This document shows, one piece after another, positions 6,988-32,499 of a stretch of 47,644 nt of DNA (positions are counted from its first letter, which is position 1; the number at the start of each line of letters is the position of its first letter). A program made the translations under genes and the position numbers. Source of the stretch: Bacillota bacterium (GTDB lineage Bacteria > Bacillota > Sulfobacillia > RBS10-35 > JAJYVN01); the NCBI GenBank assembly GCA_021791995.1, contig JAJYVN010000002.1, positions 1-47,644 of the forward strand, written 5' to 3'. Under the pieces are notes generated by a model. It saw nothing but the letters and a program-made list of their open reading frames with translations, did not search any database and was not told the DNA's origin.

Positions 6988-7033
6988 CCCTCCTCGCTCT
7001 GAGCAGGCCTGACGGCGCCTTCCGGTGAGGCGA

Positions 7034-7072: not shown

Positions 7073-7112
7073 TCGCCACGCCGGAAGGCACAACACGAGT
7101 TGCGTTGGAGGA

Positions 7113-7586: not shown

Positions 7587-7756
7587 GCCTCTCTCCCCTC
7601 CCCCGGGCCGAAGTTCCAGACTGCCTTTCCCACCAGCGACCGCTCACCTCAGGCGCCGCGCCGGGCACGGTTCAAGGCAGGAAGAGGTCAGGAGGTGCCG
7701 AGCACCCCTCCCCCTGCCCTGAACGGCGCCCGGCGCTAGCGCCGGGCAGTCTGCTT

Positions 7757-9187
7757 TCACAGGTCCGCAAACACCTCGGTAGCCGCCTGGTCGTCCGGCC
7801 CCACGATCGCCCATACGCGATCGGACCAGCGGTCAAGCTCGGCCGGGGTCCCGTCCAGCAGGATCGACATGATCCGGATCGCCTTAGCGGCCTTGGCGGC
7901 CATCAGACGCTGGTAGAACTCGTCGGAGACGGCGCACTCCCCGTCTGTCACCATCACGATGTCGGCGGACTTGAACGCGGCCTCGGCCTGTACGTCGAGA
8001 GCCCAGCCGAGTGGCTGCTCGAAGTCCGTGCCACCGTCCGCGCCTACGGTCGCAAACGCCAGGATGTCGCGCGGGTCATAGGGCTCCTTGTGCAGGAACC
8101 GGAAGGTCTGAAGCTCGGATCCCGGCCCCCGGAAGTACGCCGCCGCGAAGTCGCGCTTCTGGCTTCGGGCGATGTCGAGGAGTGCCAGGCCGACGGCCGC
8201 GGCCCAGTCGATCTTCTCCCCGCCCATAGACCCGGACGCGTCGATGAGACAGATGATTGGCCCCTTGGCGTTCTTCGGCCGCGGCCGGAGTTCGTACTCG
8301 AGCAGCCCACGTTCGAGGTAGCGCCGCCCGAAGTCGAGGCGGCGGAGCGGGTGCCCCAGCGCCGCGAGTTCCGTAGGCAGAACGTGCTCCAGGTCACTCC
8401 CCATGGTGACCGAGTGGAGTTCGTCCGCATGCCGGCGCAGCTTCTGGCGTTGCTGGGCCCGCCCAAGGTTTCGCATCCGGCCGATGAGCTCCGCCATCCT
8501 GCGGAACCGCTCGGTCGAGAGCTGCGCGGCGAACTGCAGGCGATCGCCGACCGGGATCCGGTGCATCTGCCCTGGGTCAAGGCCCCACGACGCCATCGCC
8601 TGCTGAGCCTGCTCGGCCGCCTGCGTGGCTTGTTGAGCCGCTTGGCGCGCCGCCTTGTTGACGACGCTCTGACCTTGCTGCATGGCCTGCCGTAGCTTCT
8701 GGGCCGCCTCCAGGGCCTGCTGGCGATACTCGGGGCTGCCGGGCGGCGCACCGTTCTGTACGGCGTCGCTGAAGTCCCGCATGGCCTGGTTGAGGCGCTG
8801 GTCCTTCTGGATGACCTCGACCATCTTCTTGGCGGCTTCAAGTGCCGCCAAGGCGGAGATCGTCTCGTCCAGCATCGTGTAGGAACGGGTCTGCTCTGTG
8901 GCCGGCTCCTCGAGGAGTTGCTGCACGAGTTCACGGTTAGCGAGGTGCGCAGGTTCCACGTCCGCCTCGTCACGCATGGTCGGCTGGGGCTTGTAGAAGG
9001 TGTTGAACACGTCCTGCATGAGGGGAGGCCACGTCGGCGTCCTCTCGGTGCCCTCCTGGTTCAGGGCCTGGATCGCTTCCGAGTTTTCGGCCATGTCCCC
9101 CCACAGGAGGCGGTCGGCGGCCGAGGTCTCGACGTTCTGCGTAGCAAGGGAGTCCTGGCCGATGGCTTCCTGTAGCCATCCGATCAC
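7757..9187 (-). CDS. von Willebrand factor A (VWA) domain protein (476 aa)
   Basis: GTG 9187 follows GGGGAGGGG. MIDAS motif DxSxS in PIICLIDASGSMGGEK, with the later block DIVMVTDGE. The Gln/Ala-rich helical N-terminal half resembles CobT/CoxE-type partners of MoxR ATPases. Confidence 0.85.
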   Translation of the reverse strand: MIGWLQEAIGQDSLATQNVETSAADRLLWGDMAENSEAIQALNQEGTERTPTWPPLMQDVFNTFYKPQPTMRDEADVEPAHLANRELVQQLLEEPATEQTRSYTMLDETISALAALEAAKKMVEVIQKDQRLNQAMRDFSDAVQNGAPPGSPEYRQQALEAAQKLRQAMQQGQSVVNKAARQAAQQATQAAEQAQQAMASWGLDPGQMHRIPVGDRLQFAAQLSTERFRRMAELIGRMRNLGRAQQRQKLRRHADELHSVTMGSDLEHVLPTELAALGHPLRRLDFGRRYLERGLLEYELRPRPKNAKGPIICLIDASGSMGGEKIDWAAAVGLALLDIARSQKRDFAAAYFRGPGSELQTFRFLHKEPYDPRDILAFATVGADGGTDFEQPLGWALDVQAEAAFKSADIVMVTDGECAVSDEFYQRLMAAKAAKAIRIMSILLDGTPAELDRWSDRVWAIVGPDDQAATEVFADL

Positions 9188-9200
9188 GTGAACCCCTCCC

Positions 9201-10331
9201 CTACGCGACCTTGAGGCAGACCTTGAGTACCTCGGCGTTCATCGCCTGCACCTGGGATAGCGCGTCCTCCAGGGACTGCGTGCTCTTGGCGTCGGTCTTG
9301 GCCTCCTGGATCGCCGCCTCGAGCTTGCGCATGACGCTCTTGAACGCCTTGGTCGCCTCGACGCCGGCGCTCGTCTGCTGGTCCTCGGGCGCCGCCAGAG
9401 CCCCGCGGTGGACCTCCACGGCCTGGTCGAGCAGGTCCTCGGCCTGGCTGTCGTAGGGCGACACCAAGGAGTACACCGTCTTGCGCACGGTCGGGTACTG
9501 CACGGGCTCGGACCACAGGACGGGCACCAGCACCCGGAGATCGCTGACGTCCGCCTGGATGCGACCGTTCATCCACGCCTCGGCGCGCACGACGTCCATG
9601 GCGCCGTACCAGCGCCGGTCGGATACCATGACCCCGAGCTCGCGCATCTTGGCACGAAGGTCGAGGACCTGGGGGATCACCGGGTCGATGGACACCTGGG
9701 CGACTTCGCTCTGGGCCGTGTGCAGGTCTGTCAGCGCGATCGTCGTCGGCTGGATCTGCCCCGCCCCCGCGAGGAGCTTCGAGAAGTTCGAGGCGTCCCG
9801 GATGTAGTCCACCATGAACCGGAGCATGAACCGGTCCCACAGAGCACCGAGTTCCTCCCGGTCCTCGGGGAGCTCGTTGGAGGCGCCGACCACCATCTCG
9901 AGGGGCACCTGCATGGGCTGGCCGTCGTTGTGGAAGACCCGCTCGTTGAGGATCGCCAGCAGGCTGTTCAGGATGGCCGACGACCCCTTGAACACCTCAT
10001 CGAGGAACCCGATCTGCGCCTCGGGCAGCTTGTTTGTCGTGATGCGACGGTAGGAGTCCTGCTCGAGGCCCTTGAGGCTGATCGGGCCGAAGAGCTCCTC
10101 GAGGGTGCTCATGCGCGTGAGCAGCCACTCGAAGTAGGTCCCGCCGATGCGGCTGGTGAGATCCCGGCTGAGGCCGGACTTGTCGGCTCCGGGCGGGCCG
10201 AGCAGTACGACGTGAAGCCTGGTCAGAAGGGCCAGAATCATGCCGCGGATGACGTCGCGGCGCTCGAAGTGGCGGGCACCGAGCTCGCGTTCGATGGCCA
10301 GAATGGAGTCGCGGATCGCCAACGGGGACAC
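9201..10331 (-). CDS. MoxR-family AAA+ ATPase (376 aa)
   Basis: Walker A is VVLLGPPGADKSG and Walker B is IGFLDEVFKGSSAILNSLLAILNERVF. It lies immediately upstream of the VWA gene. Start is uncertain: GTG 10331 abuts AAGGAG, and TTG 10322 has better spacing. Confidence 0.85.
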   Translation of the reverse strand: MSPLAIRDSILAIERELGARHFERRDVIRGMILALLTRLHVVLLGPPGADKSGLSRDLTSRIGGTYFEWLLTRMSTLEELFGPISLKGLEQDSYRRITTNKLPEAQIGFLDEVFKGSSAILNSLLAILNERVFHNDGQPMQVPLEMVVGASNELPEDREELGALWDRFMLRFMVDYIRDASNFSKLLAGAGQIQPTTIALTDLHTAQSEVAQVSIDPVIPQVLDLRAKMRELGVMVSDRRWYGAMDVVRAEAWMNGRIQADVSDLRVLVPVLWSEPVQYPTVRKTVYSLVSPYDSQAEDLLDQAVEVHRGALAAPEDQQTSAGVEATKAFKSVMRKLEAAIQEAKTDAKSTQSLEDALSQVQAMNAEVLKVCLKVA

Positions 10332-11258: not shown

Positions 11259-11641
11259 CAGGCGCCTCCCTGGACACAGGAAAGCCGCGCCTCGTTACGC
11301 GGCTCGGCCGTCACGCGATGCTGGGCCCTCATCCACCTGGGGAGTTTGCTGTACTCGTCAGCCTCCAAGAGACGGGCGATGCGCACGGCCCAGGACCAGT
11401 CCACGCACCGCAGGAGCGAGCGTACCCCGACCACGATCTCCACGGTGCCGTCGCCTGCCTCGAAGCACTGCACGGAGGGCAGGCCGTCCGGCCGGCTCGG
11501 CAGTCGCGTCTCGTCGGCCTCGATGAGTCGGCACACACGTTCGGCTGTGTCGCGGTCGTCAGTGTGAGCGATGGTGGCGGTGTCGGCCACAAGGTCCCAC
11601 CCACCACCTTCGGCCGGGAGGATGAGGAGCGTATCGCTCAC
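11258..11641 (-). CDS. Hypothetical protein (127 aa)
   Basis: The GTG start overlaps the clamp gene stop (GTGA at 11638-11641). Acidic protein with no motif recognised. Confidence 0.6.
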   Translation of the reverse strand: MSDTLLILPAEGGGWDLVADTATIAHTDDRDTAERVCRLIEADETRLPSRPDGLPSVQCFEAGDGTVEIVVGVRSLLRCVDWSWAVRIARLLEADEYSKLPRWMRAQHRVTAEPRNEARLSCVQGGA

Positions 11642-12750
11642 GACGCTACGGCCTCCTCACCCGGATCGACTCGCCGGATGGCGGCGGGCATGATCGGCAT
11701 GACCACCGCCGAGCCCTGCTCGTCGCTCGAAAGCCGTCCGGCGTGTTCCGCGTCGATCATCTCGAACGTCACGTTCTCCCCGTCGAGGTGCGACAGCGCC
11801 GCGGTCAGAAAGGCCGGGTTGAAGTGAATCGTCCCTTCGCCCGACACCTCGGCCGCCAGTACCTCACGCGTCGCCCCCGCCGGTCCAAACGACTCCAGCG
11901 TGATCCCTTCGGACGACAGCCGCAGGGTCACGTACTCCTCGGCCGTCAGGCCGACACGCACCAGCGCGGTGCGCAGATCCGAGGACCGGCAGACAGCCCT
12001 GGAGGCATACTCGGCCGGCAGGCGGGATTCGACGTCCGGGTACGCGCCGGCCGGTACACGGCTGTAAAGGCGGGTGCTCTTCCAGACCGCGGTTACCCCG
12101 TGCTCATCCCAGCCCAGGCGCACCCGCTCAGCGTCACACAGGCGAGCGATCATCCCCAGCGCATCGGTAGGCACGACAATGCCTGCCTCAGCCACGCCCT
12201 GAGCGTCCGCGGTGTAGCTGGCCACGCGATGCCGGTCGGTGGCGAGGAACCGAACCTCGCCTCCCGACACCGCTACCCGCACACCCGAGGTCGCGGAGGC
12301 GAGGTCCGCCCGGTCCGCGGCGTAGGCGACGCGCTCGAAGCCGTGCCGCAGGGTCTCGCCCGCTATCTCGATGCTCGTCCTGGCGAATGGCGGCTTCGGA
12401 AAGTCCACGTCCGGCACCGTACCCAGGCGAGCTTCACCCCCGACGTACCGCACGAGTGCACCGCCATCCTCGCCCTCGAGCGTCACGTCGCCTGACACGC
12501 TCTTGACAAGCTCGTGCAGCAACTCCGCGCCGATGACGCAGGCACCCGGCTCATACGGTCCATCGCCTGTGCGCTGCAGGGTGATTTCGAGGCCCTGGAT
12601 CATGTTGAAGGCGGTGAAACGAATGGCGTCTGGCTTCACCTGTGTGAGCACGCCCGATAGCACCGGCAGGGCACTACTCGCCCGGTGGGCCACCTGAGCC
12701 AGGGCGGCAAGCGCTGGAGCCAAGACCGAACTGGGCATGGTAAATCGCAC
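11638..12750 (-). CDS. dnaN: DNA polymerase III beta sliding-clamp paralog (about 370 aa)
   Basis: The three-domain clamp-like sequence begins VRFTMPSSVLAPALAALAQVAHRASSALPVLSGVLTQVKPDAIRFTAFNMIQGLEITLQ. I set the start at GTG 12750, 5 nt after GAGGAGGG (ATG 12738 is an alternative). The longer track ORF is an Arg/Ser-rich extension. Confidence 0.8.
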   Translation of the reverse strand: MRFTMPSSVLAPALAALAQVAHRASSALPVLSGVLTQVKPDAIRFTAFNMIQGLEITLQRTGDGPYEPGACVIGAELLHELVKSVSGDVTLEGEDGGALVRYVGGEARLGTVPDVDFPKPPFARTSIEIAGETLRHGFERVAYAADRADLASATSGVRVAVSGGEVRFLATDRHRVASYTADAQGVAEAGIVVPTDALGMIARLCDAERVRLGWDEHGVTAVWKSTRLYSRVPAGAYPDVESRLPAEYASRAVCRSSDLRTALVRVGLTAEEYVTLRLSSEGITLESFGPAGATREVLAAEVSGEGTIHFNPAFLTAALSHLDGENVTFEMIDAEHAGRLSSDEQGSAVVMPIMPAAIRRVDPGEEAVAS

Positions 12751-12764
12751 AAGAGCCCTCCTCT

Positions 12765-12798
12765 CGAAAGCAAAATGGGCTGCCTTCACAGGCAGCCC
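12765..12798 (-). terminator. Rho-independent terminator or attenuator upstream of the clamp gene
   Basis: The minus strand reads GGGCTGCC-tgtgaa-GGCAGCCC followed by ATTTTGCTTT. It lies 50 nt after the zinc-ribbon gene stop. Confidence 0.6.
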
Positions 12799-12847
12799 GC
12801 GTATGGTAGGCGATGGCCTACGGAGCTCAGCCACCCTGGACCGGCGT

Positions 12848-13105
12848 TCAGTCTTCCACGTCGACGACCTCGAACGCACGGAACTCGTGGTGGCACCCGA
12901 GGCAGACGAACGTCCGGGGTCGTCTCGGCCGTTGGCTGTCCCAGTTGACCAACGTCTGCTCACTCCACTCGATCTCGACCTTGCCTCGCGCATTCACGGT
13001 CGGGGTGAGAAGTGCGAGACCTTCGATCACGTCGATCTCCCCGAAGCCCTCATGGTTCTGGTGACAGCTTGGGCAGACCGCATCCTTGCCCATCCGCTGG
13101 CACAT
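12848..13105 (-). CDS. Small zinc-ribbon protein (about 85 aa)
   Basis: Two CxxC pairs (CPSCH ... CLGCH). I prefer ATG 13105, preceded by GGGGGAAGG. ATG 13162 and 13138 are alternatives without an RBS. Confidence 0.55.
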   Translation of the reverse strand: MCQRMGKDAVCPSCHQNHEGFGEIDVIEGLALLTPTVNARGKVEIEWSEQTLVNWDSQRPRRPRTFVCLGCHHEFRAFEVVDVED

Positions 13106-15735: not shown

Positions 15736-16146
15736 CTAGAACGGAACCTCCTCGGCCTCCTGCTCGGCCGGCGGAGCCTCCGCGTCCGACGGGGGCGCGC
15801 CGTCCGCGACCTCGCCGTTGCCCTTCTTCGGGCTGTCGAGGAAGCGAACGTTGTCCGCCACGACCTCGGCGGCCTTGCGCCGCTGGCCGTCCTGGGTCTC
15901 GTAGTTGCGGATCTGCAGTCGGCCGGTGACGGCGACCAGACGCCCCTTCTGGAGGTGACCGGAGACCGTCTCCGCAAGCTTGCGCCACGTGACGATCTCG
16001 ATGAAGTCGACGTCACGCTCACCCTGCTGATTGGAGAACGGGCGGTCGACCGCGAGGGCGAAGTTGGCCACCGCCACGCCCGACGGCGTGTACCTCAGCT
16101 CCGGATCGCGCGTAAGACGCCCGATCAGGATGATCTCGTTCAGCAT
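15736..16146 (-). CDS. ssb: Single-stranded DNA-binding protein (136 aa)
   Basis: OB-fold N-terminus MLNEIILIGRLTRDPELRYTPSGVAVANFALAV...FIEIVTWRKLAE and an acidic tail ending EEVPF. ATG 16146 is 12 nt after AGGAGGTG. Confidence 0.9.
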   Translation of the reverse strand: MLNEIILIGRLTRDPELRYTPSGVAVANFALAVDRPFSNQQGERDVDFIEIVTWRKLAETVSGHLQKGRLVAVTGRLQIRNYETQDGQRRKAAEVVADNVRFLDSPKKGNGEVADGAPPSDAEAPPAEQEAEEVPF

Positions 16147-16336
16147 CTCGGGGATGCACCTCCTGAAAAGTGTGGGGCTCCCACGCTGCCGACGTCCCGA
16201 GTCGGGAGCGCAGGCGGCGCGGGAGCCCGGAAGCAAACCCGTCGATTCTGCGTCGGGCCGGGAGGGTCAAGGGCAGAGCGAAGCGACCCTTGACCCGATG
16301 GCCCGTGCGCGGCCTGAAAGGCTCGAGCGACGCGCC

Positions 16337-20134: not shown

Positions 20135-20361
20135 GGAGGCACCTCCCGGATGGGCTCGACAACCTGCGTGATCGAGCCATCCCTCGCCGACGGCCGCGAC
20201 GCGCCGTCCAGGCCAACGCCGCCGAAGGCGACGTTGCGGCGAAGCCGCCTGGCCTGGACCAGCAAGTGGCCGTCGGCATGACCCCGCGCCGTCCGACAAG
20301 TTGTCCCGAACACGACAAAGCGCCCACCATCCGGCGGGCGCCAACGTGTTCGGCATCCCGG

Positions 20362-20577
20362 TCAGCCTCTGGCTTGCACTCCTGGTGCCACTCCGCGCGG
20401 TACGTCGTCGATCGCCTGGTGGAAAGCCAAGGCCTCCTTGAACGAAGCCAGCGTCTCCTCCGGGGTGTCGCCGGTAGCCACACAGCCTGGAACGTCGTCG
20501 CTGTACGCGGACCAGTTCCCGCCTGCGGGTTCGATCACGATGGTCACGCGCGGCCAGGCCGCCGTCGCCTTGCTCAT
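20362..20577 (-). CDS. hicB: HicB-family antitoxin (71 aa)
   Basis: RVTIVIEPAGGNWSAYSDDVPGCVATGDTPEETLASFKEALAFH matches the HicB/UPF0150 fold. Its start overlaps the hicA stop (ATGA). Confidence 0.8.
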   Translation of the reverse strand: MSKATAAWPRVTIVIEPAGGNWSAYSDDVPGCVATGDTPEETLASFKEALAFHQAIDDVPRGVAPGVQARG

Positions 20578-20789
20578 CGGCCATTCCCCCGCAGCCCGGC
20601 TTGGCGCCGGATGCTCGCCACCGTGCCCTTGGCGATCTCGTGACCAGGGTTCCCCGGCACCGTGACCTCGCCCGGATTCGTCGGGTGCTTGAAGTGCCGG
20701 TGGTCACCATGCTGAGCCACGGAAACCCATCCGTCGGCCTGAAGCTCCGCGATCATCTCGCGCACACGCGCAGGCCACACCTGCAGCAT
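20574..20789 (-). CDS. hicA: HicA-family mRNA-interferase toxin (71 aa)
   Basis: MIAELQADGWVSVAQHGDHRHFKHPTNPGEVTVPGNPGHEIAKGTVASIRRQAGL matches the HicA pattern (GW...GSH..f.hp....tvP.H...i..gt...I.kqaGl). Confidence 0.8.
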   Translation of the reverse strand: MLQVWPARVREMIAELQADGWVSVAQHGDHRHFKHPTNPGEVTVPGNPGHEIAKGTVASIRRQAGLRGNGR

Positions 20790-20828
20790 GCGCCCCCAAC
20801 CACAGCCGGCTCTGGCGTCCAGGTCCCA

Positions 20829-21158
20829 TCATCGAACCTGGCCCCCGTCAGACTGTCCGGGACCCAGAACCCGGTCGAGGACCGCGCGGCCTTGCGCGTC
20901 GGGCAGGAGGTTCTTCACCGGGAGGCGCTCGCGCGCCAGTCGCGCAAGCTCGGCCTCGTCGCACCACTCCAGGATCTCCTCGCGCATCTGGCGGAACTGC
21001 GCGTAGGAGAAGACGACATACCGTCTCCGCGATCCCCTTGCCAGGATGACTGGTCCCGTCGAGGGCACCGCGAGTTCGCCCAGCAGCGCCAGTACTGTGT
21101 CGTCCGCCTGACGCACGCACATGTCCCCGCGTTTGATGAGGTCCATGACGGTCGGCAA
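20829..21158 (-). CDS. Phd/YefM-like antitoxin-fold protein (about 109 aa)
   Basis: I chose TTG 21158, 5 nt after GGGAGGAG. ATG 21191 has no RBS. Sequence LPTVMDLIKRG...TGPVILARGSRRRYVVFSYAQFRQMREEI resembles Phd/YefM. Confidence 0.45.
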   Translation of the reverse strand: MPTVMDLIKRGDMCVRQADDTVLALLGELAVPSTGPVILARGSRRRYVVFSYAQFRQMREEILEWCDEAELARLARERLPVKNLLPDAQGRAVLDRVLGPGQSDGGQVR

Positions 21159-21350
21159 CCCGACTCCTCCCTCGCCAGTCAGTCGCCTCATCGGGATCAG
21201 CGCTAGCGCGTTGCCGTCGGCTTGGGGCCACCGTCTTCTGGCACTCACGGTCAACCCGCACAGACAAGCGCTCCGGGCGACCCATCCCACAAGCAAGCAT
21301 CGATTTACAGAACGGGCGAAGTCAAATACCCGAACGAGGACGTGACTACG

Positions 21351-22100
21351 CTAGGCCGAGACGACCTCACCGTATTCGTACAGACGCAACGGCACGTACC
21401 GAACGAGTTGATCGCCTAGTAGGTCGCCCTGATCACCGTCAAGATCGACAATGACGCCGACGCCGGGATCGTCCGCGGCTCCGAGGCTAGCCACGGTGGC
21501 GCGATAGCTCCCGCGGCGAACGCTTTGGGTCAGGCACCAGCTGTACACTGCCGGTACAAAGCCGATGTGAACGCCCGATGGTGACAGTACCCGGATTGCG
21601 TTGGGGTCGTGTGGGTTGGTTTCATCGAGTTGCAGTCCCAAGACGGCCCCGGGCACCAGTTCCTCCATCACCTGTTCGCCATCGTAGTAACGCCAGCCAG
21701 CCACAGGAAATCGGAGGTAGTACGTGTCCGCCGCGCTAATCGGCTCAAGGAACTCAAGTGTATCGGTGGGCAGACGACCCCCGGTGAGACGCAAGAACTC
21801 TATCCCGTCGCCGGGCTCCACTCCGAGGCGCCCGTAATCCTCGGCGGCCCACGTCTGCGGCACCCGCCGGAGGAACGTTGCGAACAGTTCGGGCTGCCGC
21901 CATTCGCCTTCGGGGGCAGGGAACTCGTCGAATAGTCGGAAGCCAACGGCCTGCGCTTCGCTCAGTGCTCCAGGGGTAGTTGTTTCGTACCTAAACACGT
22001 GCCCGCGCGAGTCACGCGATAGGTGCCCGATGAGGTAGCGGCGCCGCGACAAGGCATGCTGCCAAACAACAAGCACAGAACTGTCTGGTCGCCCAGCCAT
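21351..22100 (-). CDS. HipA-N-terminal-like (HipS-like) domain fused to a HIRAN domain (249 aa)
   Basis: ATG 22100 directly abuts the kinase gene stop (TAGATG). N-terminal blocks VLVVWQHALSRRRYLIGHLSRDSRGHVFRYE, ELFATFLRRVPQ and GIEFLRLTGGRLPTDTLEFLEP parallel E. coli HipA blocks LVTWMNNQRVGEL...HTFKYA, VFNFFDNLLPD and FDLLSEIGRDSVGA. The C-terminal block GAVLGLQLDETNPHDPNAIRVLSPSGVHIGFVP is a HIRAN signature. Confidence 0.7.
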   Translation of the reverse strand: MAGRPDSSVLVVWQHALSRRRYLIGHLSRDSRGHVFRYETTTPGALSEAQAVGFRLFDEFPAPEGEWRQPELFATFLRRVPQTWAAEDYGRLGVEPGDGIEFLRLTGGRLPTDTLEFLEPISAADTYYLRFPVAGWRYYDGEQVMEELVPGAVLGLQLDETNPHDPNAIRVLSPSGVHIGFVPAVYSWCLTQSVRRGSYRATVASLGAADDPGVGVIVDLDGDQGDLLGDQLVRYVPLRLYEYGEVVSA

Positions 22101-22940
22101 CTACCCATCCCCCCTTGCAACGAGGATGTCCCTCCTACTGCGTAGGACCACGCGAGCGAAGGACCAGCGTTCAGGCTCCATGATACTCTCTGGCTCATCT
22201 ATGGAGGCCAAAATTTGGTCGATGGCATCATCTGTTAGATTACCCACAAGTTCCTTGAATCCCGCCATGTCTGGGTCCAGTTGCCGGACCGTGGCCAGTA
22301 GCTCAGGGATCCCGGGCTTCCGGGCGTCCTCCCGGAGGAGAATCTCGTAGCGGAACTGACGATCGAACCGGCCTAAGCCTTTCCGGAGGTGCAGTTCGAT
22401 GCGCAGTGGATCGAGGGCACTTCCGAATGCAGCAGCGTTGTCGTAGTAGGGCGCCATTTCGGCTGAGCCACCGTTACCCAGCGTCACGCCCCAATTGGCC
22501 TGATGGCGGTCCGCGTTTCCGGTAAGAATGTCAAAACACACCATGCGAATGAAGCCTCGTACGGCCAAATGTCGGTCCGTGTAGTGACCCAGGCACTCCA
22601 GGACGCGGGCGACAGTGAGCCGGTCCTTGGACATCGAACCTGCAAGATCAATTCCTTCGCGAAGCTCTTGACCCGGTCCGAGGAACGACCGAACCAATGC
22701 TCCTACCCGACGGTTCATGATGGCAGGTTCGACAATTGGGACGGGCAGGCCAAGCCACCGTCCAACGTGGGAGGCCAAAACCTCAGCTCCGACCTCCCCG
22801 GTAACAAACAGGCCCTCCTGTGTCGCCTGCTCTTTGGGGAACTTCAGGAGGTACCATCGTGATTCTCGATCTTGAACCCAGTAGCCGGGCCGGCTCCCCG
22901 TGCCCTTTCTCACCTTGGTCCAATCCGACACATCTAACAT
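22101..22940 (-). CDS. HipA-family Ser/Thr kinase, core domain only (279 aa)
   Basis: Catalytic block CFDILTGNADRHQANWGV, and later APYYDNAAAFG. ATG 22940 (the track uses TTG 22946). The G+C content is visibly lower than in the flanks. Confidence 0.8.
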   Translation of the reverse strand: MLDVSDWTKVRKGTGSRPGYWVQDRESRWYLLKFPKEQATQEGLFVTGEVGAEVLASHVGRWLGLPVPIVEPAIMNRRVGALVRSFLGPGQELREGIDLAGSMSKDRLTVARVLECLGHYTDRHLAVRGFIRMVCFDILTGNADRHQANWGVTLGNGGSAEMAPYYDNAAAFGSALDPLRIELHLRKGLGRFDRQFRYEILLREDARKPGIPELLATVRQLDPDMAGFKELVGNLTDDAIDQILASIDEPESIMEPERWSFARVVLRSRRDILVARGDG

Positions 22941-22946
22941 GGCCAA

Positions 22947-22952
22947 ATATTA
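22947..22952 (-). promoter_or_regulatory. -10 hexamer TAATAT, 6 nt upstream of ATG 22940 (leaderless geometry)
   Basis: The minus strand reads tggcgtggTAATATttggccATG with no SD. The XRE promoter has the same spacing. Confidence 0.3.
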
Positions 22953-23625
22953 CCACGCCAGTCATCTAGGTGTTCGACCCGCCCCGGAAGCCTCGCGTTT
23001 GCCCGAACGCCCGGATGGGAGCCGGGTGTCCAGGTCCGCAGGGCCTGGATGCCGGGCAACCCACCCGGGCATGTCGAACGCAACACGTGTCACGTTCCCA
23101 CCAGATCATCGCCAGAGGCAGCCGGGCCAAGGAGATGCCCCTTCGGCTCTTCCTCCAGAACAAGACCCGGTGGCGCCCCGGGACTGTGCGCGCTGCCTTG
23201 GCACGCACGGGCCGACAGTCCGGGGGACTGTCGGCGGGCGCACCAGACCTCACGCACTCTGTATCAAGCCAAGGCTACGACTCCGGTTCTCCTTCCTCCG
23301 CACGCACGGCCAGCACGCCCCGACCGCGACGGGAGACCGAGAGGGAAACCGGCGCGTGCTCCCAGACGTCTCGGTCCGCCGCCATCGCTCACCCCGGGGG
23401 CCCTCTCCCTATGCACCCCGACCGCGCCGGGAACTCGCGAGAGAGACCGGCGCGTCCTCATGCCCTCGCTGGTCCGCCTCCATCCTCTAAGCACAATCTT
23501 CGGCTCGATGGTCAGGCCCGCTGTGAGCCGACGCCGGGCCGCCTGTGACTTCAACCACGGCCCAAGCGCTTACCGGGCCCTCACCCACGGAAGCCGCACC
23601 GTACCCGACGACGCCGGCCCCTTGG

Positions 23626-23874
23626 TCACCACCAGGAGACTGTGCTCCCCCACGTACCCGATCTCAACATCCATGCCTCGAGACTCAGTCGCCTCGTTAG
23701 ATGTTCCTTGGCTCTCCACAGAGCCGTCTCGCCCGGAATAGCCACGACCGCACCTTCCCCGGCTCTTGCCCTTGCCAACACCGCCTTGACCTCGTCCGCC
23801 ATCACAGACCATTGCCCCCTACGTCCGGTCCTGATCTTGACTCTGTTCACGGAAACCAACGCCACCCGCTCCAT
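23626..23874 (-). CDS. Hypothetical protein (82 aa)
   Basis: ATG 23874 is 5 nt after AAGGGGGTG. Third-position G/C is moderate. A second frame (MDVEIGYVGEHSLLVVTKG...) continues past its stop, so a frameshift is possible. Confidence 0.4.
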   Translation of the reverse strand: MERVALVSVNRVKIRTGRRGQWSVMADEVKAVLARARAGEGAVVAIPGETALWRAKEHLTRRLSLEAWMLRSGTWGSTVSWW

Positions 23875-24181
23875 ACTCGCACCCCCTTGCAAATGCTTCA
23901 GACCAACAGATCCACCAGACTTCATCACACCCTGATGCCAACTCCAACTCGCTTGCCCTGAGACACGAACCATTCGCCTGCCCTAGCCTCAGCCAGCCAT
24001 CAGCTAGCCTTCGCCTACAGCCCTTGCCCTTGGGAATCCTCTGGAGGTTCAGCCACCCCCGCCCCCCACAAACTGCTCCCCCTCCCTTTAGGCGGTCGAG
24101 GAAGTGTTGGTACGGAAGGGTTCAAACCCGCGAAGGCGCACCAGCAGTGGCTTTGGCCGCCCTCTCGGATGGTTGCGATGC

Positions 24182-24226
24182 GCTATGTCACGATCCGCTA
24201 TGTCACGGTGCGCTATGTCGCGATGC
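24182..24226. repeat. Three tandem 15-bp iterons (GCTATGTCACGATCC / GCTATGTCACGGTGC / GCTATGTCGCGATGC)
   Basis: Head-to-tail copies with a conserved GCTATGTC(A/G)CG core, 85 bp beyond the replication-relaxation gene stop. Confidence 0.8.
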
Positions 24227-24310
24227 GCCACAGTAGAGTGCGCGGGAGTAACGGTACGCGGCAGTACGATGCGCAACGGCCACCCGACCCCTGGCGTCGG
24301 CGATCACTCG

Positions 24311-25240
24311 TCAGCCACCCGTCGTCGGTCGGCGCGTGAGCGCCAGCCCGACAGCCTGGAGCAGATCCACGCTGCGGTTCCCAGCCACGGCCTCCACCGT
24401 CAGCTTGTCCACCCGCCACACGTCCTCCCGAATGAACATCGCCGGGAACAAGAGCAGGCTGGCCGCGGCTTCCTTCGCCAGGTTGTAGACGCTCTCCGAG
24501 TAGCCCTGGGTGTTCCCGAGCACATCGACGGAGAACAACACCTTGGGCTCTCGGGCGAAGCTCGCCTCCCAGACCCGCCCGTCGAAGTAGCGCTTGTACT
24601 TCGTCATCCGGTCATGGACGTCGCCGGGCCGCAGTGACCGCTCATGCTCCACCAACACAGCCGTGCCATTCCCGAACAGGAGCGCGGCATCCGGGCTGAC
24701 CTCAAGCCTCTGGCCGCCCACAGCCATCGGGTGAACTCGCTGCACCAGCCGCTTAGAGCCCCGCCAATCCACCGGCACTCCCGCACGCGCAGCGTGCCGG
24801 ATCACGGTCGTTGCCAGGTCGGCAATCGCCAACTGGTGAACGACGTTGTTCCGCGTACCAAACGCGGCATACGGAGGGTCCCAGTCCGGTTCTGCCGCCA
24901 ACGCGACCACGTTGCCATTCAGCACCAGCACCTCGAACCCGAGGCGAGTCAGGCCGTACACCCACGCGCTGGCCCGCCCCTCTGCAACGTCTTCTCGACA
25001 CCGGGCCAGCAGGCCGTGCATGTACAGCCGCAACAGCCTCTTGTTGGCCACGGCAATGCTCTGCTCAAACGGCAAGTGCCGCCGACCCAGGAAGGAGTGC
25101 TCAAGGAGCATGGCTAGCCCCTCAAGATCCCGCTCGGTAACCCAAAACTCCCCGGTCCCTCGGATCAACTCCCCGGCCTGGTGGGTTACGTCGGCGGTCT
25201 CCCACATCGGCCACACCCGCTGCCCCTTGCGCACCAGCAC
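24311..25240 (-). CDS. Replication-relaxation family protein (about 309 aa)
   Basis: wHTH-like N-terminus (VTERDLEGLAMLLEHSFLGRRHL...ANKRLLRLYMHGLLAR...VYGLTRLGFEVL), then NNVVHQLAIADL and PDAALLF blocks as I remember for PF13814. I chose GTG 25240, 4 nt after GGAGGAGG. ATG 25354 would translate the TGGCGCCA array (repeated KVLAPD). Confidence 0.7.
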   Translation of the reverse strand: MLVRKGQRVWPMWETADVTHQAGELIRGTGEFWVTERDLEGLAMLLEHSFLGRRHLPFEQSIAVANKRLLRLYMHGLLARCREDVAEGRASAWVYGLTRLGFEVLVLNGNVVALAAEPDWDPPYAAFGTRNNVVHQLAIADLATTVIRHAARAGVPVDWRGSKRLVQRVHPMAVGGQRLEVSPDAALLFGNGTAVLVEHERSLRPGDVHDRMTKYKRYFDGRVWEASFAREPKVLFSVDVLGNTQGYSESVYNLAKEAAASLLLFPAMFIREDVWRVDKLTVEAVAGNRSVDLLQAVGLALTRRPTTGG

Positions 25241-25279
25241 TTTTCCTCCTCCACACCAGACGCAGCTTCGGTAGACGTC

Positions 25280-25429
25280 TGGCGCCAGCACTTTTCCGCG
25301 TCCTGACGCGGAGAACGCAGCCTTCAACCGGCGATCTGGCGCCAAAACGGTCATGGCGCCAGGGCCTATGCGCCTCGTGAAGCGGAAAATCGCTGACGCC
25401 AAACCCCAACCGGCGCCAAATTGGCGTCT
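25280..25429. repeat. TGGCGCCA palindrome array A (3 perfect and 3 degenerate copies, one 24-bp composite unit)
   Basis: Perfect copies at 25280, 25337 and 25354. Degenerate copies at 25394, 25411 and 25422. The composite unit TGGCGCCAgcacTTTTCCGCGTCC is at 25280-25303. Confidence 0.85.
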
Positions 25430-25495
25430 GGTTCGCCGCGCCCTCATATCGCCAACCAACGGCGAGGGGGCGGCCCCTGCGACCGCCCCCTCGTA

Positions 25496-28400
25496 CTACC
25501 TTGCAGCCTTGACCGGCTCCGCCATGAGCGCCACCAGCTCGTCGACGCTGGCCACCTCCGGATGCTCCTGGTAGGTGTCCGCCGCATCCGACACGTCGAC
25601 CTTACGCGCGACGAGCTCCTGCCGGAGTTCGTTTACGCCCTTATGCAGCTTCGTTGCCAAAGGCCGAAGGATCCGGTCCTCCCGCTTCAAGCCGGCGACA
25701 CGTCGTACCCGAGTCAGCGCCTGATTGGCCAGCATGTTGTTCGTGTTCAAGGCCCACTGACAGGCACCGATCAAGTCCTCGTCGCTCGCCCCGACCTGCG
25801 CCGCCGCCTGCACCAACCGTGCGGGCGTCATCGCGAACCGCAGGCAGAACATCTTACGGGGATCGTGCTCCCTCCAGGAGTCTGGCCCCGTCGACGTCTT
25901 CTGCCCCGTGCTCGCCTTGGCGGTACTGTCGGCGATCGGCGAAGCCGCGAGGGCCGCCGCCCGCGGCGCGTCACCCGAGGCGGACGGCGCGTCACTCAAC
26001 ATAGCCACGTCGGGGCGCCGCCCCTTCTTCGTCGGCTTCACCCGGTACATTTCCGCGTCTGCACGGCCGACCGTGTCAGCAAGGAGTTCGCCGGGCTTCT
26101 GAAGCGCCACGCCAACACTGGCAGGGACAAGCGACTCGTCCAACTCGCGACGGATGCGCTCCAGCCACGAGTCAAGACCCTCCTCCGGCATTCCCCGAGC
26201 CAGGATGGCGAACTCGTCGCCGCCGATCCGCGCCGCGATGTCCCGCTGCCGTGTAACCCGGCCGATCGCCTCGCCCGCCCGGCGAATGAGCCTATCGCCC
26301 GCCGCATGACCACCGTGGTTGTTGACCCCCGTGAGGTCGTTCAGGTCGATAAAAGCCACTGCGTTCTGCCCGTCGGGCGCAGTCTCCACCGCGCGCTCCC
26401 ACACACGGCGGTTGAACAGCCCCGTCAGTTCGTCCCGCCCTTGGTCCAGCAGCCGCTGCACAACGTCCTCTCCCAAAACCAGAGACGCCAGATCGGGGCC
26501 CACCTCTGCGCTCCGCTTGGTGGAACCGACGCCTGCCGGGAGTTCGGCAGAGGGCTTGGGCGCGTCAATCTCCAGCGCGCCCGCCTGGGTGTTGGGGGCG
26601 GCCAACTGCTCAGGAGCAAGGTCGATGATCAGTTCCACTTCCTCGTCCGCCACGGTCATCACTTCCTCCTCCGCGTCGCCTCGACGCGCAAGCAGTGTCT
26701 GCGTCTCAAGGTGCGCCTGGCGCCAGTCCTCCCGGTAGAACCTCTCCCAGTTGATCGTCTTGGCGTAGAAAGCCGGCTGGATGGCACCGTTCACCATCCA
26801 CTGGCAGATCGACGTGAACTTCGGCAGGCGGATGATATCGTCCACTCCCAGGTTGATCGCGTCCTGGCTCTCCGCATTCACCTGGACGGCGTTCGCCCAC
26901 GTGCGCATGAAGCGCTGCATGAAGTCCTTGGCCTCATCAAGAAGCTGGAACTGGTGGACGATCACGTTCTGGATGAGCTGGCGAAGCCCGGCGACGACCC
27001 TCTCGCTCTCGATCTCCGCCAGGAACCGAATGGCCAAGGTCACCTGCAGGCCGTACGCTCGGCCCTCGGCGAGCATGTTGAGGAACCCTTCCGACAGGTA
27101 GTTCTGGGCTTCGTCCAGGATCAAGCTCACGCGGACGCGCTCACGCTCCTCGATCTCGTTCTGGGCCTGCATGGCGTACCACAGCAGGGTCACCACGAAG
27201 ATGCCCAGGAGACGCACTCCGGCGTCCCCCAGGCGTGACTTGTCCAAGTTGACGATGAGCACGTCCCGGTCCTTGATGATCTTTCGGAAGTCGAGTTGGC
27301 GCCGGCCGTTACCGGCCTCAAGCGCCTGCCGCACGAGCCGGTTCCGCAAGAGCTCGTCCAGCTTGTTGCGTGGCGCTGCCAACCCCTCTTCAAGGAACCG
27401 TTGGTTGCCCTGCATGGCCTGTATGAACGTCCGCTGCCAGTAGTCCTTGAGGTGGTCGTCCCTCACGTGTTGGATCACCCGGTTGCGAAACTCCCCATCC
27501 GTGAGGATCTCGTACACCTTGGTGAAATCGGCGTCTGGGCCCAGCACTTCCTTGACCGCACCGATGGCGTTGCCAAGGAACTCACGGCTCCGAAACTGGA
27601 TGGCCTGGTCGCCGAAGACCTCCTGCATGGCGTTCAGCACGTTCTCCTGCATCACGTCATCGTTGATCGACGCTTGCAGCGGATTGATCGTCCACGGGCA
27701 GTCCGGCATGCCGGGTGCGAAGTAGACCACGCTTCGGTCCGGCGGCACCATGCCCAGCGCTCGCTTCGAGGTGTCCTTGCCGATGTCGATGAGCACGACG
27801 CACTTCGGCTGGCCCTGCGCATCCCGGTAGTACACGTCCGAGCGGAACAAGGAGAGCTCGTCCGTCGTCTTGCCAGAGCCCTGGGCTCCCACGAGTAGGA
27901 CGCCTGCCTCACGGTCTCCCTCGGGCACCACGAGTCGGTCGTCGCTCTCCTGGTCCAGCACCATCGCCCTGGCGTCCTCCGCAACCCGCGGAATGGAGCG
28001 CGGCGCCGGCGCCCGGCGCACGTAGTACCGGACGAGCGTATTCACCCGCAGCCGGTTGGTCGGCAGGTGGATGATGGTCGCCAGCGGGAACGAAAACATG
28101 ATCGACGGCCGGAAGGCGATGAGGCTCGGAAGCCTTGAGTAGAACCACTCCACCCAGGCCGAGCGAAACGCCCACACCGTCGTAGCCCGGAACGTGTTTT
28201 CGCCATCGGCCTCACACAGAGCGCCGTAGACCCTCTGGACCGTCTCCCAGTTCTCAGCGCCGAGCCGGATCTCCACGCGAAACGCCTTCTTGCCGTACAG
28301 TTGCAGGCTGTCCTTGACCGCCTGCGACTCCGCGTACCCCACGCCAGGAGCGGCCGGATCGACCTGCTGCACAGCCTTTGCCGAGTGCTCCATGCCCCTG

Positions 28401-29161
28401 ATCTCGTTGCGGAGCCGGGTGTGCAACTGCTCCGACGGCAACGGGGTCAGGTGGAACTGCAAGTGGGCGGCCCCATCCGCACGGTCCAGGCTCTGCACCA
28501 CCGTCTCCACGACGCTGTTCTGATAGTCCTTCACGGTCTCCGTAGCGTGGCGCCAGTGCTTGGACAACACGATTTGCTGAGTAACCGGCCACCGAACGAA
28601 CTCGTCGGTCCACGGCCGAAACCTGATATTCGTGTACTTGGAACGGAACGTGTCCTCGAGCACCCTCAGCCAGTCCTGCTGGTAGCTGGGGGCGGACAGC
28701 AGGAAGTGGATCATGTGGTCCTGCGTGCGCACGATCTCGAAGGTGAAGAAGTCCTGGCCCACTCCGCTACGCACGTAGCGCGTCAGCATCTGGCCATGGA
28801 TGGCGTCCAAGGCCGACATGATCTCGTACGGCTCCGCTGTGTCGTTCGGACCCAGGATGATCTCGTCCACCCTGACCGACCGTGCTCGCATACGTCGCCG
28901 CATGAGGCGTATCACCAAGGCCGACGCCAACGCCAGAGCCACAACCGCGCCAAGAGCCAATCCAAGCAAGAGCGCGAGATGCCCGACGTCTACTTGCACG
29001 CGCGCCGCCACGTGGGCTGTCGGCGTGCGTACCAGCCGTGGGCTCTTCACGCGCGCGGTGACGTGTCGCCAGAGCCAAACGACGCCCGCCACCAGGCCGG
29101 CAACCCAGATCAGAACCGTGGCCTCGCTGCCCGACGACCCCCTTCGGTCCGAACCGTCCAC
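25496..29161 (-). CDS. Type IV coupling-protein-like membrane ATPase fused to a GGDEF diguanylate cyclase domain (1221 aa)
   Basis: GTG 29161 follows TAAGGGGGT. There are two N-terminal hydrophobic helices. Walker A is VGAQGSGKTT (aa 424-433) and Walker B is SLILDEAQ (aa 679-686). The GGDEF domain spans aa ~905-1045 (DNA ~26027-26449), with RIGGDEFAIL and RQRD (RxxD) five residues upstream. The last ~175 aa are unassigned. Confidence 0.8.
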   Translation of the reverse strand: MDGSDRRGSSGSEATVLIWVAGLVAGVVWLWRHVTARVKSPRLVRTPTAHVAARVQVDVGHLALLLGLALGAVVALALASALVIRLMRRRMRARSVRVDEIILGPNDTAEPYEIMSALDAIHGQMLTRYVRSGVGQDFFTFEIVRTQDHMIHFLLSAPSYQQDWLRVLEDTFRSKYTNIRFRPWTDEFVRWPVTQQIVLSKHWRHATETVKDYQNSVVETVVQSLDRADGAAHLQFHLTPLPSEQLHTRLRNEIRGMEHSAKAVQQVDPAAPGVGYAESQAVKDSLQLYGKKAFRVEIRLGAENWETVQRVYGALCEADGENTFRATTVWAFRSAWVEWFYSRLPSLIAFRPSIMFSFPLATIIHLPTNRLRVNTLVRYYVRRAPAPRSIPRVAEDARAMVLDQESDDRLVVPEGDREAGVLLVGAQGSGKTTDELSLFRSDVYYRDAQGQPKCVVLIDIGKDTSKRALGMVPPDRSVVYFAPGMPDCPWTINPLQASINDDVMQENVLNAMQEVFGDQAIQFRSREFLGNAIGAVKEVLGPDADFTKVYEILTDGEFRNRVIQHVRDDHLKDYWQRTFIQAMQGNQRFLEEGLAAPRNKLDELLRNRLVRQALEAGNGRRQLDFRKIIKDRDVLIVNLDKSRLGDAGVRLLGIFVVTLLWYAMQAQNEIEERERVRVSLILDEAQNYLSEGFLNMLAEGRAYGLQVTLAIRFLAEIESERVVAGLRQLIQNVIVHQFQLLDEAKDFMQRFMRTWANAVQVNAESQDAINLGVDDIIRLPKFTSICQWMVNGAIQPAFYAKTINWERFYREDWRQAHLETQTLLARRGDAEEEVMTVADEEVELIIDLAPEQLAAPNTQAGALEIDAPKPSAELPAGVGSTKRSAEVGPDLASLVLGEDVVQRLLDQGRDELTGLFNRRVWERAVETAPDGQNAVAFIDLNDLTGVNNHGGHAAGDRLIRRAGEAIGRVTRQRDIAARIGGDEFAILARGMPEEGLDSWLERIRRELDESLVPASVGVALQKPGELLADTVGRADAEMYRVKPTKKGRRPDVAMLSDAPSASGDAPRAAALAASPIADSTAKASTGQKTSTGPDSWREHDPRKMFCLRFAMTPARLVQAAAQVGASDEDLIGACQWALNTNNMLANQALTRVRRVAGLKREDRILRPLATKLHKGVNELRQELVARKVDVSDAADTYQEHPEVASVDELVALMAEPVKAAR

Positions 29162-30543: not shown

Positions 30544-31560
30544 CTACGCGGGTGCCGTCGACCTGGAAGCCGCGAGCATCGCCGCGTACCCCCGGGCGTT
30601 GGCGCCCGCGGCCTCCTCCAGCAACTCAGCGCTCTCAAACGCCCCGGCGAGGTGTGGGTACAGCAACACGCCGCCCCCACCGACGACAAGGACCGTGGAC
30701 ACCTGATTGAAGGCGGAGCCCCACGCCTCCTTGAGCCTGCCGGCGATTTCCGCGGCCAGATCGCCGCTCGTAGAGCGAACGCGCTCGTCCACATCTACCT
30801 TTCGGCCGCGTACGGACAGCGGCCGCGAGTCCAGCACCGCCTGCTCCACCTCGCTTGGGTCGAGCATCGTAGAGGTCTCGTGCGAAATCTCCTGAGCCAC
30901 CGTCGCGTAGACACGCTCGACGCCGATGTCGAGGCTCCCGCTCACGCGCTCGTCCGGTCTCGCCAGGCGCTCGCCGGGAGCGAGACGGAGAAGCATGTGG
31001 TCCGTCGTGCGATAGCCGACGTCCACAACGGCGCACGGCTCAAGCGCCAAGTCCGGCCTACGGCTCACCGCGGCAAAGTACGCCGCTGCCGACTGGGGAA
31101 ACACCCGCACGGTGCCAATCCGGATAGGAACGAGAGGGCCGTCGTCCACGCTCACCATCATCTGCGCGCCAGCAAGACGCCCCCGCAGCTCTCGCCGCTC
31201 GGCCACGGCGGTGTACAGGCTCAGCGGCAGACCCACGGCCAAGGAGACGTCACCGGAGACGTCCAGGAGACGCAGCGCGGTAAAGACCAACTGAACGTAG
31301 TCCTGCCGCCTGGCGGCTTGCGCGTCCCACGTACGGGCGCCTCCGGCAAAGAGCGCGGCACTGCCCACGAGGGCTGTGTCCGCTTGCGCCAAGGCGCCAT
31401 CGCTCAGAACCAGTCGGTGCGGTAGCGACCGGCCGCCCAACGCGGCAGTCAGCTCGCCACCGGTCCGCCCGCGTACCACGACGCTAGGGAAGGAGACCCG
31501 GAGGCCGTCTTCCCGAGCCGCCTTCGTGTACCCGTACCCCACATCTACCCCAACAATCAC
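30544..31560 (-). CDS. parM: ParM/StbA-family actin-like segregation ATPase (338 aa)
   Basis: Starts MIVGVDVGYGYTKAA (phosphate-1 loop), with a later VVDVGYRTTD block. The GTG start overlaps the EAL gene stop (GTGA). Confidence 0.8.
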   Translation of the reverse strand: MIVGVDVGYGYTKAAREDGLRVSFPSVVVRGRTGGELTAALGGRSLPHRLVLSDGALAQADTALVGSAALFAGGARTWDAQAARRQDYVQLVFTALRLLDVSGDVSLAVGLPLSLYTAVAERRELRGRLAGAQMMVSVDDGPLVPIRIGTVRVFPQSAAAYFAAVSRRPDLALEPCAVVDVGYRTTDHMLLRLAPGERLARPDERVSGSLDIGVERVYATVAQEISHETSTMLDPSEVEQAVLDSRPLSVRGRKVDVDERVRSTSGDLAAEIAGRLKEAWGSAFNQVSTVLVVGGGGVLLYPHLAGAFESAELLEEAAGANARGYAAMLAASRSTAPA

Positions 31561-32255
31561 GCGCGCCGCCTCCCCTTACCAATCACCGGCTTACCGAACA
31601 GATACCCCTGGCCGAAGGGAACGCCGATCCGCCGGAGGGTGGCCGCCTCCCCGGCGACTTCCACGCCTTCCGCGATCAGGTGCGCGCCAATGTCCGAAGC
31701 GTATTGCGCAAGCACCCCGAGCATCGCGGCCTTCTGCGGATCACGGTGACACCCGTCGACGATGGACCGATCTACCTTGATGTAGGCAGGGTGCATCCTC
31801 ACAAGCGCCCCCAAGTTGGCCTGACCGGAACCTACATCGTCCACCGCGTAGGAAATCCCCGCCTCTTCGAGACCGTGCACAAGGCTGTCCGGAATCCGGG
31901 CGGCTTCGCTCAATTCGACCACGACCCGTTCGTGGTGCCTCCACCGGTCCACGACGCCAGCCGAGCGTGGATCGGCGTTCACGAACAACAGCCCATCGGT
32001 CCTGGGCAGGTCGGCGCACAGCTGCGCCACCAAGTCCTCCAGCGACTCGAGAACCCCAGTTCGCGTCGCTTCGCTCCACAGATCCGTCGGGTCCAACTCC
32101 GGGTGGCGCTCGATCCGGAACAGAGCCTCGTGACCGATGACGACCTTCGAGTCGAGGTTGATGATCGGCTGAAGAGCCATGCGCGATCGGAGCCTGCCGT
32201 TGAGAACGGCGTACAACATACCGGCAATCTCCAAAGAAGCCATCCTAGACGCCAT
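31557..32255 (-). CDS. EAL-domain c-di-GMP phosphodiesterase, stand-alone (232 aa)
   Basis: Signature blocks are intact: GHEALFRI, LFVNADP, VVELSEA, YAVDDVGSG, IKVDRS, IAEGVE, GQGYLFGKP. I prefer ATG 32255, 5 nt after AGGGGGAAG (the track start is 32294). Confidence 0.85.
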   Translation of the reverse strand: MASRMASLEIAGMLYAVLNGRLRSRMALQPIINLDSKVVIGHEALFRIERHPELDPTDLWSEATRTGVLESLEDLVAQLCADLPRTDGLLFVNADPRSAGVVDRWRHHERVVVELSEAARIPDSLVHGLEEAGISYAVDDVGSGQANLGALVRMHPAYIKVDRSIVDGCHRDPQKAAMLGVLAQYASDIGAHLIAEGVEVAGEAATLRRIGVPFGQGYLFGKPVIGKGRRRA

Positions 32256-32499
32256 CGTCGCTTCCCCCTGCCGTGGCGAACTCCCAACGTACAACCCCGA
32301 ACCGGATCACCCGGAACCAAGCCGAGAGGCGCACCGGCTGCTGGTCGGCCCAGCGCGGTGTCGAAGTGCCATGCACGATCACCCGGCCAGACGTCATGCC
32401 ACGCGCAACGGCGACCCGTCGTGCCGCGACTTGCGGATCCTCGGTCCCAACACGGATCTCTACGTCTCCCTCGGACTCGCTCAGCGTCGCGGCCCTCAT
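32245..32499 (-). CDS. Hypothetical protein (84 aa)
   Basis: ATG 32499 is 8 nt after TGGAGG. The gene overlaps the EAL start by 11 nt. No motif recognised. Confidence 0.45.
   Translation of the reverse strand: MRAATLSESEGDVEIRVGTEDPQVAARRVAVARGMTSGRVIVHGTSTPRWADQQPVRLSAWFRVIRFGVVRWEFATAGGSDDGV

Follow-up and report, generated by a model that had tools for sequence, protein, structure and literature searches.

The stretch of DNA analysed here, referred to as the window, comprises 47,644 nucleotides of contig JAJYVN010000002.1 from a Bacillota bacterium (assembly GCA_021791995.1). It carries two adjacent genes, hipI and hipN, which code for a short kinase of the HipA family and for a protein that combines a HipS-like domain with a HIRAN domain (Table 1). 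This cassette is a hipIN-type module (PDC-M03 in the PADLOC database) and is the lower-GC cargo of a conjugative element. Identical or near-identical versions of HipI and HipN were found in several independent assemblies.

Table 1. Features of the hipIN cassette and of the surrounding window (positions are those of the window; (-), reverse strand).
Feature	Position	Strand	Remarks
hipI (gene 1)	22101..22940	(-)	279-aa short HipA-family Ser/Thr kinase; core only, without N-subdomain 1
hipN (gene 2)	21351..22100	(-)	249 aa
hipN, N-terminal HipS-like domain	21735..22100	(-)	about aa 1-122; W84 within 'PQTW'
hipN, C-terminal HIRAN domain	21432..21725	(-)	about aa 126-223
hipN, C-terminal tail and stop codon	21351..21431	(-)	aa 224-249; predicted to be disordered or a single helix
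Extended -10-like element TGgTAATAT	22947..22955	(-)	read directly from the sequence; putative function
bpMoxR AAA+, VWA and DUF6744 genes	6061-10331	(-)	in a row; bpMoxR E 1e-51
DnaN-like sliding clamp and SSB	11638-12993, 15736-16236	(-)	element-encoded
HicB-like gene (weak)	20362-20577	(-)	overlaps hicA
hicA	20574-20789	(-)	Pfam HicA_toxin, E 3e-19
Replic_Relax gene	24311-25459		conjugative module
Type IV coupling-protein/FtsK-like ATPase gene	25496-29161	(-)	1221 aa; C-terminal GGDEF diguanylate cyclase domain (residues 909-1047)
EAL phosphodiesterase gene	31557-32294	(-)	stand-alone; near the coupling-protein-like gene
IS21-family istA/istB pair	41450-43518	(-)	IstB, E 2e-89

The two genes abut without a single intergenic base: the in-frame stop codon TAG of hipI (22103-22101) is immediately followed by the ATG of hipN, an arrangement which suggests translational coupling. 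Two start codons are conceivable for hipI: translation from a TTG at 22946 would lead to a protein of 281 aa (22101..22946), and translation from the ATG at 22940 leads to one of 279 aa, in agreement with the length annotated in public assemblies (protein P0036). Among the flanking open reading frames (ORFs), Pfam detected no helix-turn-helix (HTH) gene within or beside the cassette, the nearest being an HTH_3 gene at 720-1205. The cassette has a GC content of 0.587 (hipI) and 0.625 (hipN), and the GC content at third codon positions (GC3) is 0.65 and 0.69, respectively, compared to 0.74-0.93 in 15 other genes of the window.

On the reverse strand, the hexamer TAATAT (22952-22947) is preceded by TGg and followed by 6 nt, after which the hipI ATG begins. 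Only two TAATAT sites occur in the entire window, and no Shine-Dalgarno sequence was seen ahead of the ATG. A leaderless hipI transcript is plausible on these grounds. Because a strict scan for two-hexamer (-35/-10, sigma-70) promoters returned zero sites, the leaderless start is something that we infer. Terminator-like sites are no more frequent than expected by chance, and a search for flanking direct repeats, such as an insertion of the cassette might have left, revealed only short matches of chance quality.

HipI corresponds to the kinase core of HipA. The Pfam domain HipA_C is matched above its threshold (E 2.6e-10, 40.7 bits, cut-off 30.5), and no match to Couple_hipA or N-subdomain was found within the protein. 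The PADLOC model PDC-M03A (PDLC04340) is matched with E 7e-43 over residues 1-276 of 281. By sequence, the nearest solved structure is that of the HipA-like kinase CtkA (E 7e-7); the corresponding value for HipT is E 0.26. In an AlphaFold2 (AF2) model for which HipI and HipN were joined, the kinase half resembles CtkA (3akl) with a template modelling score (TM) of up to 0.78, and CtkA, HipA and HipT were all retrieved with a probability of 1.00. The catalytic motifs of HipI align with HipA residues 292-338, a stretch that takes in the catalytic loop and the Asp which binds Mg. Residues 12-19 form the Gly-rich segment KGTGSRPG, and the catalytic motif reads D144-R-H146-x-x-N149. In a set of 36 homologues from related loci, residues G15, K33, E53, D144, H146, N149, and D167 are invariant, and at least 80% of them share S16, which is beside the Gly-rich loop. 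As all catalytic residues are invariant in the family and present in HipI, this protein looks catalytically competent.

The N-terminal half of HipN does not reach the threshold of the Pfam domain Couple_hipA (E 0.18, 12.8 bits vs. 22.5). When a profile of 22 N-domains was compared to the PDB, the matches were exclusively to HipS proteins, namely HI_0666 from H. influenzae (7czo, E 4.5e-4) and HipS from E. coli O127 (7ab3/7ab4, E 0.02). The AF2 model of HipN has a mean predicted local distance difference test score (pLDDT) of 85.8, with values below 50 at residues 232-249. A Foldseek search with this model retrieved HipS (7ab3_B) with a probability of 1.00, a TM of 0.77, and a root mean square deviation of 3.1. 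Based on these profile and model comparisons, the assignment of this half as HipS-like stands. In the profile alignment, the 'PEGW' motif of HipS (E63, W65) aligns with 'PQTW' of HipN, which makes W84 the equivalent of W65, the essential Trp with an inhibitory role in HipS (PMC10627512). At the other end of the protein, the motif 'R.VP..L..Y' in the tail is only moderately conserved.

The C-terminal half of HipN matches the Pfam domain HIRAN (PF08797; residues 128-202) well above its threshold (E 1.7e-13, 50.7 bits, cut-off 24.7). A profile search of the PDB identified lp_0118 (E 7e-6) and the HIRAN domain of HLTF (E 6e-5), and the latter was also retrieved by Foldseek with the HipN model (E 1e-5, probability 1.00). 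The 3'-OH makes contact with D94 in HLTF, and the last two bases are pinched by Y72 and Y93 (PMC5773155). In the alignment with HipN, D94 corresponds to D165, which is invariant in the HipN family, Y72 to Y138, and Y93 to H164, a position which is aromatic throughout the family. Given these correspondences, the end-binding pocket of HipN appears to be retained. The HLTF/Rad5-type HIRAN domains thus have the fold, the 3'-OH-contacting Asp, and the flanking aromatic positions in common with HipN. They differ by being joined to an SNF2 helicase or a RING domain, whereas the bacterial HIRAN domain of HipN is joined to a HipS-like domain. For the binding of duplexes, HLTF uses its Phe142 region. 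Actinobacterial HipN proteins have been reported to be devoid of most end-binding motifs (PMC8262856); judged from its residues, the HipN of the window is outside this motif-poor group.

Most of what a preliminary description, made from the sequence alone, had proposed for this locus agrees with these data. The ORF coordinates bear out two abutting genes (TAG followed by ATG) with the 279-aa kinase as the first one, and all peptide motifs that it had quoted are present in the translations. Its reading of gene 1 as a HipA kinase core agrees with the Pfam match and with the fold of CtkA, HipA and HipT, and its HIRAN assignment for the C-terminal half of gene 2 agrees with the results from Pfam and Foldseek. 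Structural likeness to HipS, on which it had made its view of the N-terminal half depend, was found both with the model and with the N-domain profile. Among the three profiles which it had named for a search, HipA_C and HIRAN scored above the cut-off and Couple_hipA below it. Pfam results for the flanking ORFs support its statement that a HipB-type HTH gene is absent, and GC3 values its statement that the cassette is lower in GC than its flanks. It had also reported a leaderless-type -10 element: the TAATAT 6 nt before the ATG is indeed present, while the leaderless character is an interpretation. The mechanism it had put forward, in which DNA ends would free a kinase toxin from the HipS-like module, is compatible with the conserved residues.

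The one claim that had to be abandoned is that the architecture is undescribed. The hipIN family was defined in 2021 by Gerdes, Baerentsen, and Brodersen (mBio) and consists of the kinase HipI (279-321 aa) and a downstream HipN with HipS-like and HIRAN domains; the fused form was named HipL (PMC8262856). [quoted passage not shown] These authors also proposed that HIRAN recognises phage DNA ends, leading to activation of the kinase and to abortive infection (PMC8262856). The pair from the window agrees with hipIN in the short kinase (279 aa), the N-terminal Gly-rich loop with its adjoining Ser, the HipS-like plus HIRAN partner, and the absence of HipB. We found no architectural difference; this copy is carried by a high-GC conjugative element and its HIRAN domain retains the end-binding residues, unlike the actinobacterial HipN proteins. 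The family is also catalogued in PADLOC as PDC-M03, which has the status of a candidate phage defence system only and is described as HipA + HIRAN proteins with 2/2 genes (PMC13245101). Both of its models are matched by adjacent genes of the window, HipN being covered by PDC-M03B (PDLC04352, PADLOC-DB v2) with E 9.7e-48 over residues 7-223 of 249. The PADLOC web-server paper holds no description of PDC systems. A HipA-HIRAN pair has in addition been noted in passing, with a diDNase partner in some Actinomycetes and Clostridia (PMC11706625). The cassette in the window is a new copy of a known, bioinformatically defined family, and its architecture is not new.

Related systems were compared and could be distinguished from the cassette. 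The HipBST systems (E. coli O127, Legionella, Haemophilus) likewise have a split HipA with a kinase devoid of N-subdomain 1 and a separate protein with HipS fold, the inhibitory W65 of which aligns with the HipN Trp. However, HipBST includes hipB and has the kinase gene last, whereas the cassette lacks HipB, has its kinase gene first, and carries HIRAN on the HipS-like domain. Identity with HipBST was rejected because there is no HTH-type hipB in or beside the cassette and because the kinase gene comes first, with no antitoxin genes upstream. Also, the HipBST kinase HipT has TrpS as target, and HipI is by sequence nearer to CtkA than to HipT. HipL has the same three domains in the same order as the window pair, which differs essentially by the stop and restart at the junction; the in-frame TAG results in two polypeptides, so that the pair is not a HipL. 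A three-gene cluster of the diDNase-HipA-HIRAN type (PMC11706625), in which a gene for a DEDD-family deoxydinucleotide nuclease adjoins the pair, was also rejected: the flanking ORFs have no Pfam match to an exonuclease family, and no third gene is conserved at the 57 related loci described below.

The distribution of the family was analysed with a HipN profile search that covered 1.84 billion cluster representatives. It resulted in 6419 matches at E <= 1e-3, and 1169 cluster representatives were found at E <= 1e-10. Among the 150 matches listed, nearly all span both HipN domains. Relatives of the HipN from the window are mainly found in metagenome-assembled genomes (MAGs) of Bacillota, Symbiobacterium, and Thermomicrobia, and thus point to high-GC Bacillota-like MAGs, not to Actinobacteria. 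For the analysis of gene neighbourhoods, 57 genome loci and metagenome loci were examined, among which 50 have an intact, assessable hipN gene. The survey of co-occurrence that the preliminary description had called for supports the pairing: a full kinase gene is located directly upstream on the same strand at 34 of the 50 loci. The two genes overlap by 4 nt at 15 loci and abut directly, as in the window, at 10. At 16 of the 50 loci an intact kinase is missing, the gene being frameshifted or truncated in nine cases and absent in seven. One of the orphans is the closest relative of the window HipN (locus L001, 6743-7753, 84% identical), where the kinase gene is reduced to about its last 45 codons and an acetyltransferase gene is adjoining. 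The frequent finding of an intact hipN whose kinase gene has decayed or been deleted suggests that carrying the kinase comes at a cost, which would be an indirect sign of toxicity. A third gene that is conserved beside the pair was not detected across the 57 loci.

Proteins which combine the kinase, HipS-like, and HIRAN domains in a single chain and in the same order also occur (P0043, P0090, P0119, and P0162). P0043 (553 aa) is collinear with HipI (33% identity) followed by HipN (44% identity). Several other HipN relatives have an added domain: P0017, P0013, P0022, and P0029 carry an N-terminal extension with an MqsA-type zinc-ribbon and an HTH, and in P0008 a nucleotidyltransferase (MNT-like) domain is added at the C-terminus. 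A hipIN pair with 4-nt overlap is encoded on a viral contig of 34.8 kb (IMG/VR UViG_2791355492, 4150-5756; locus L064), so that phages or prophages are carriers of the module as well. This pair is flanked by genes for an SNF2-type helicase and a small sigma-like protein, and by an HNH endonuclease gene. A megablast search of region 20300-25500 against plasmids gave zero matches, and a tblastn search of HipN against plasmids (PLSDB) gave one distant match only.

As to the function of the cassette, we consider it probable that HipN imposes a HipS-type restraint on a toxic kinase and that its HIRAN domain provides an end-binding input. Judging from HipBST, the HipS-like domain would dock onto HipI at the place where HipA bears its N-subdomain 1 and would keep the Gly-rich loop in an inactive state. 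The HIRAN domain, in view of its conserved HLTF-type residues, would bind nucleic acids at a free 3' end. The kinase would then be released either by such binding or when HipN is lost. HipA and HipT phosphorylate aminoacyl-tRNA synthetases; the freed HipI may likewise phosphorylate an essential host protein, perhaps such a synthetase, with growth arrest as a consequence. This could abort the infection, stabilise the mobile element, or do both.

Several points weigh against this interpretation. The likeness to HipS is weak by sequence, with Pfam under its cut-off and E 0.02 to the HipS from E. coli, and only about two thirds of the HipN family have the Trp that aligns with W65, although this Trp is not universal among HipS proteins either. 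The AF2 model of the fused HipI and HipN, computed from an alignment of 18 rows, has a pLDDT of 80.5 and a predicted TM of only 0.59, so that the docking mode is putative. The active toxin HipA itself includes the homologous N-subdomain 1, and in HipL the HipS-like domain is covalently attached; the HipS-like domain therefore need not be a simple inhibitor. The decay of the kinase genes may in part be an assembly artefact of MAGs. Finally, literature searches for experiments on hipIN, hipL, PDC-M03, or HIRAN-kinase defence returned the phylogeny paper from 2021 and passing mentions only.

A more specific version of the proposal, in which HipN is a direct sensor of nucleic-acid ends, is possible, but we regard it with some doubt. 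A 3'-OH accommodated in the HIRAN pocket (D165, Y138, H164) would alter the hold of the HipS-like domain on HipI. Such ends could stem from intermediates of phage replication or packaging, or from an incoming conjugative T-strand. If true, this would be the first protein kinase toxin which is gated by DNA ends, and it could also guard the element against competing mobile DNA.

The cassette could instead be a plain addiction module that acts by post-segregational killing, with HipN as labile antitoxin and with HIRAN as a replacement for HipB in autoregulation of the operon, without any sensing of foreign DNA. It would fit with this that the cassette is located among conjugation and partition genes and near a second toxin-antitoxin pair, hicAB. 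As there is no HTH regulator in the cassette, autoregulation would need some other DNA-binding function; a 22-bp palindrome is found about 130 nt upstream of hipI, and the added MqsA-type HTH in HipN relatives (P0017) suggests built-in DNA-binding regulation. However, HIRAN domains bind DNA ends and not specific operators (PMC8262856, PMC5773155), and the residues conserved in HipN are those for end binding, with the D94 equivalent being invariant and the two aromatic positions kept. Also, most relatives are chromosomal and found in varied contexts, with a relative on just one PLSDB plasmid, and the fused HipL forms cannot act via differential decay of the antitoxin. We consider a plain addiction module rather unlikely.

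The pair may not be a toxin-antitoxin system at all. HipN would then act positively, as a targeting subunit, with the HipS-like domain completing the HipA fold and HIRAN bringing the kinase to 3' DNA ends, where DNA-bound proteins would be phosphorylated. The proposed ends are those at replication forks, on a conjugative T-strand, or in phage replication intermediates, and genes for conjugative DNA processing adjoin the cassette. That N-subdomain 1 belongs to the active HipA enzyme, that kinase-HipS-HIRAN proteins naturally exist as one chain, and that the suggested translational coupling would result in roughly 1:1 synthesis are all in line with such a role. Yet in the only split system that has been tested, HipS is an antitoxin and acts via the Trp which aligns with W84 (PMC10627512), and the frequent loss of the kinase while hipN stays intact would fit a kinase that is costly better than an enzyme that depends on both subunits; we judge a targeting subunit to be improbable. 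We give hardly any credence to the view that the cassette is a decaying, non-functional remnant of horizontal acquisition. The GC3 is atypical for the window, and the kinase is degraded in many relatives, but here both ORFs are complete and match the family models from end to end, none of the invariant catalytic and binding residues is altered, and the identical or near-identical protein pair recurs in several independent assemblies.

The hypothesis that DNA ends are sensed has already been published (PMC8262856), and the cassette adds one intact copy, borne by a mobile element, to the widespread and catalogued family hipIN/PDC-M03. What makes this family interesting is whether DNA ends, through a HIRAN domain, can turn a HipA-type kinase on or off. 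The copy from the window is suited as a test construct: the genes are compact, the key residues are intact, and W84, D165, and D144 are clear positions for point mutants.

The cassette is located within a conjugative, plasmid-like module, as evident from Pfam matches of ORFs in the window (Table 1), and the element, together with its cassette, recurs in other assemblies. A ParM/ALP gene is also part of the module, as are the genes for a sliding clamp and a single-stranded DNA-binding protein (SSB). The conjugation machinery is paired with enzymes of cyclic di-GMP metabolism (GGDEF and EAL), which is unusual. Located about 560 nt downstream of hipN is hicAB, which constitutes a second toxin-antitoxin pair, and an unannotated ORF of 120-155 aa (20829-21296) lies between hicAB and hipN.

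Upstream of hipI, a stretch of 1.36 kb (22953-24310) has no convincing gene. Its forward strand is strongly C-rich, with a GC skew of down to -0.4 at 23600-24000. It contains imperfect direct repeats of about 98 nt (23193-23490) and a 15-bp unit which is present 3.5 times (24176-24228). The above-mentioned 22-bp palindrome has the core CACGTG and is found at 23076-23097. This stretch may be an origin of transfer (oriT) or an iteron region. No match to Rfam families or tRNA genes was obtained anywhere in the window.

Among the neighbouring genes of the cassette, no other PADLOC systems were found. The bpMoxR, VWA and DUF6744 genes, which also have zero PADLOC matches, form a row on the same element that corresponds to a predicted conflict system of the MoxR-vWA type. 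At the far side of the mobile module, the IS21-family transposition genes divide it from genes for DsrE, rhodanese-ArsR, SCO1/AhpC, and CcmF (sulfur, thioredoxin, and cytochrome-c-maturation functions).

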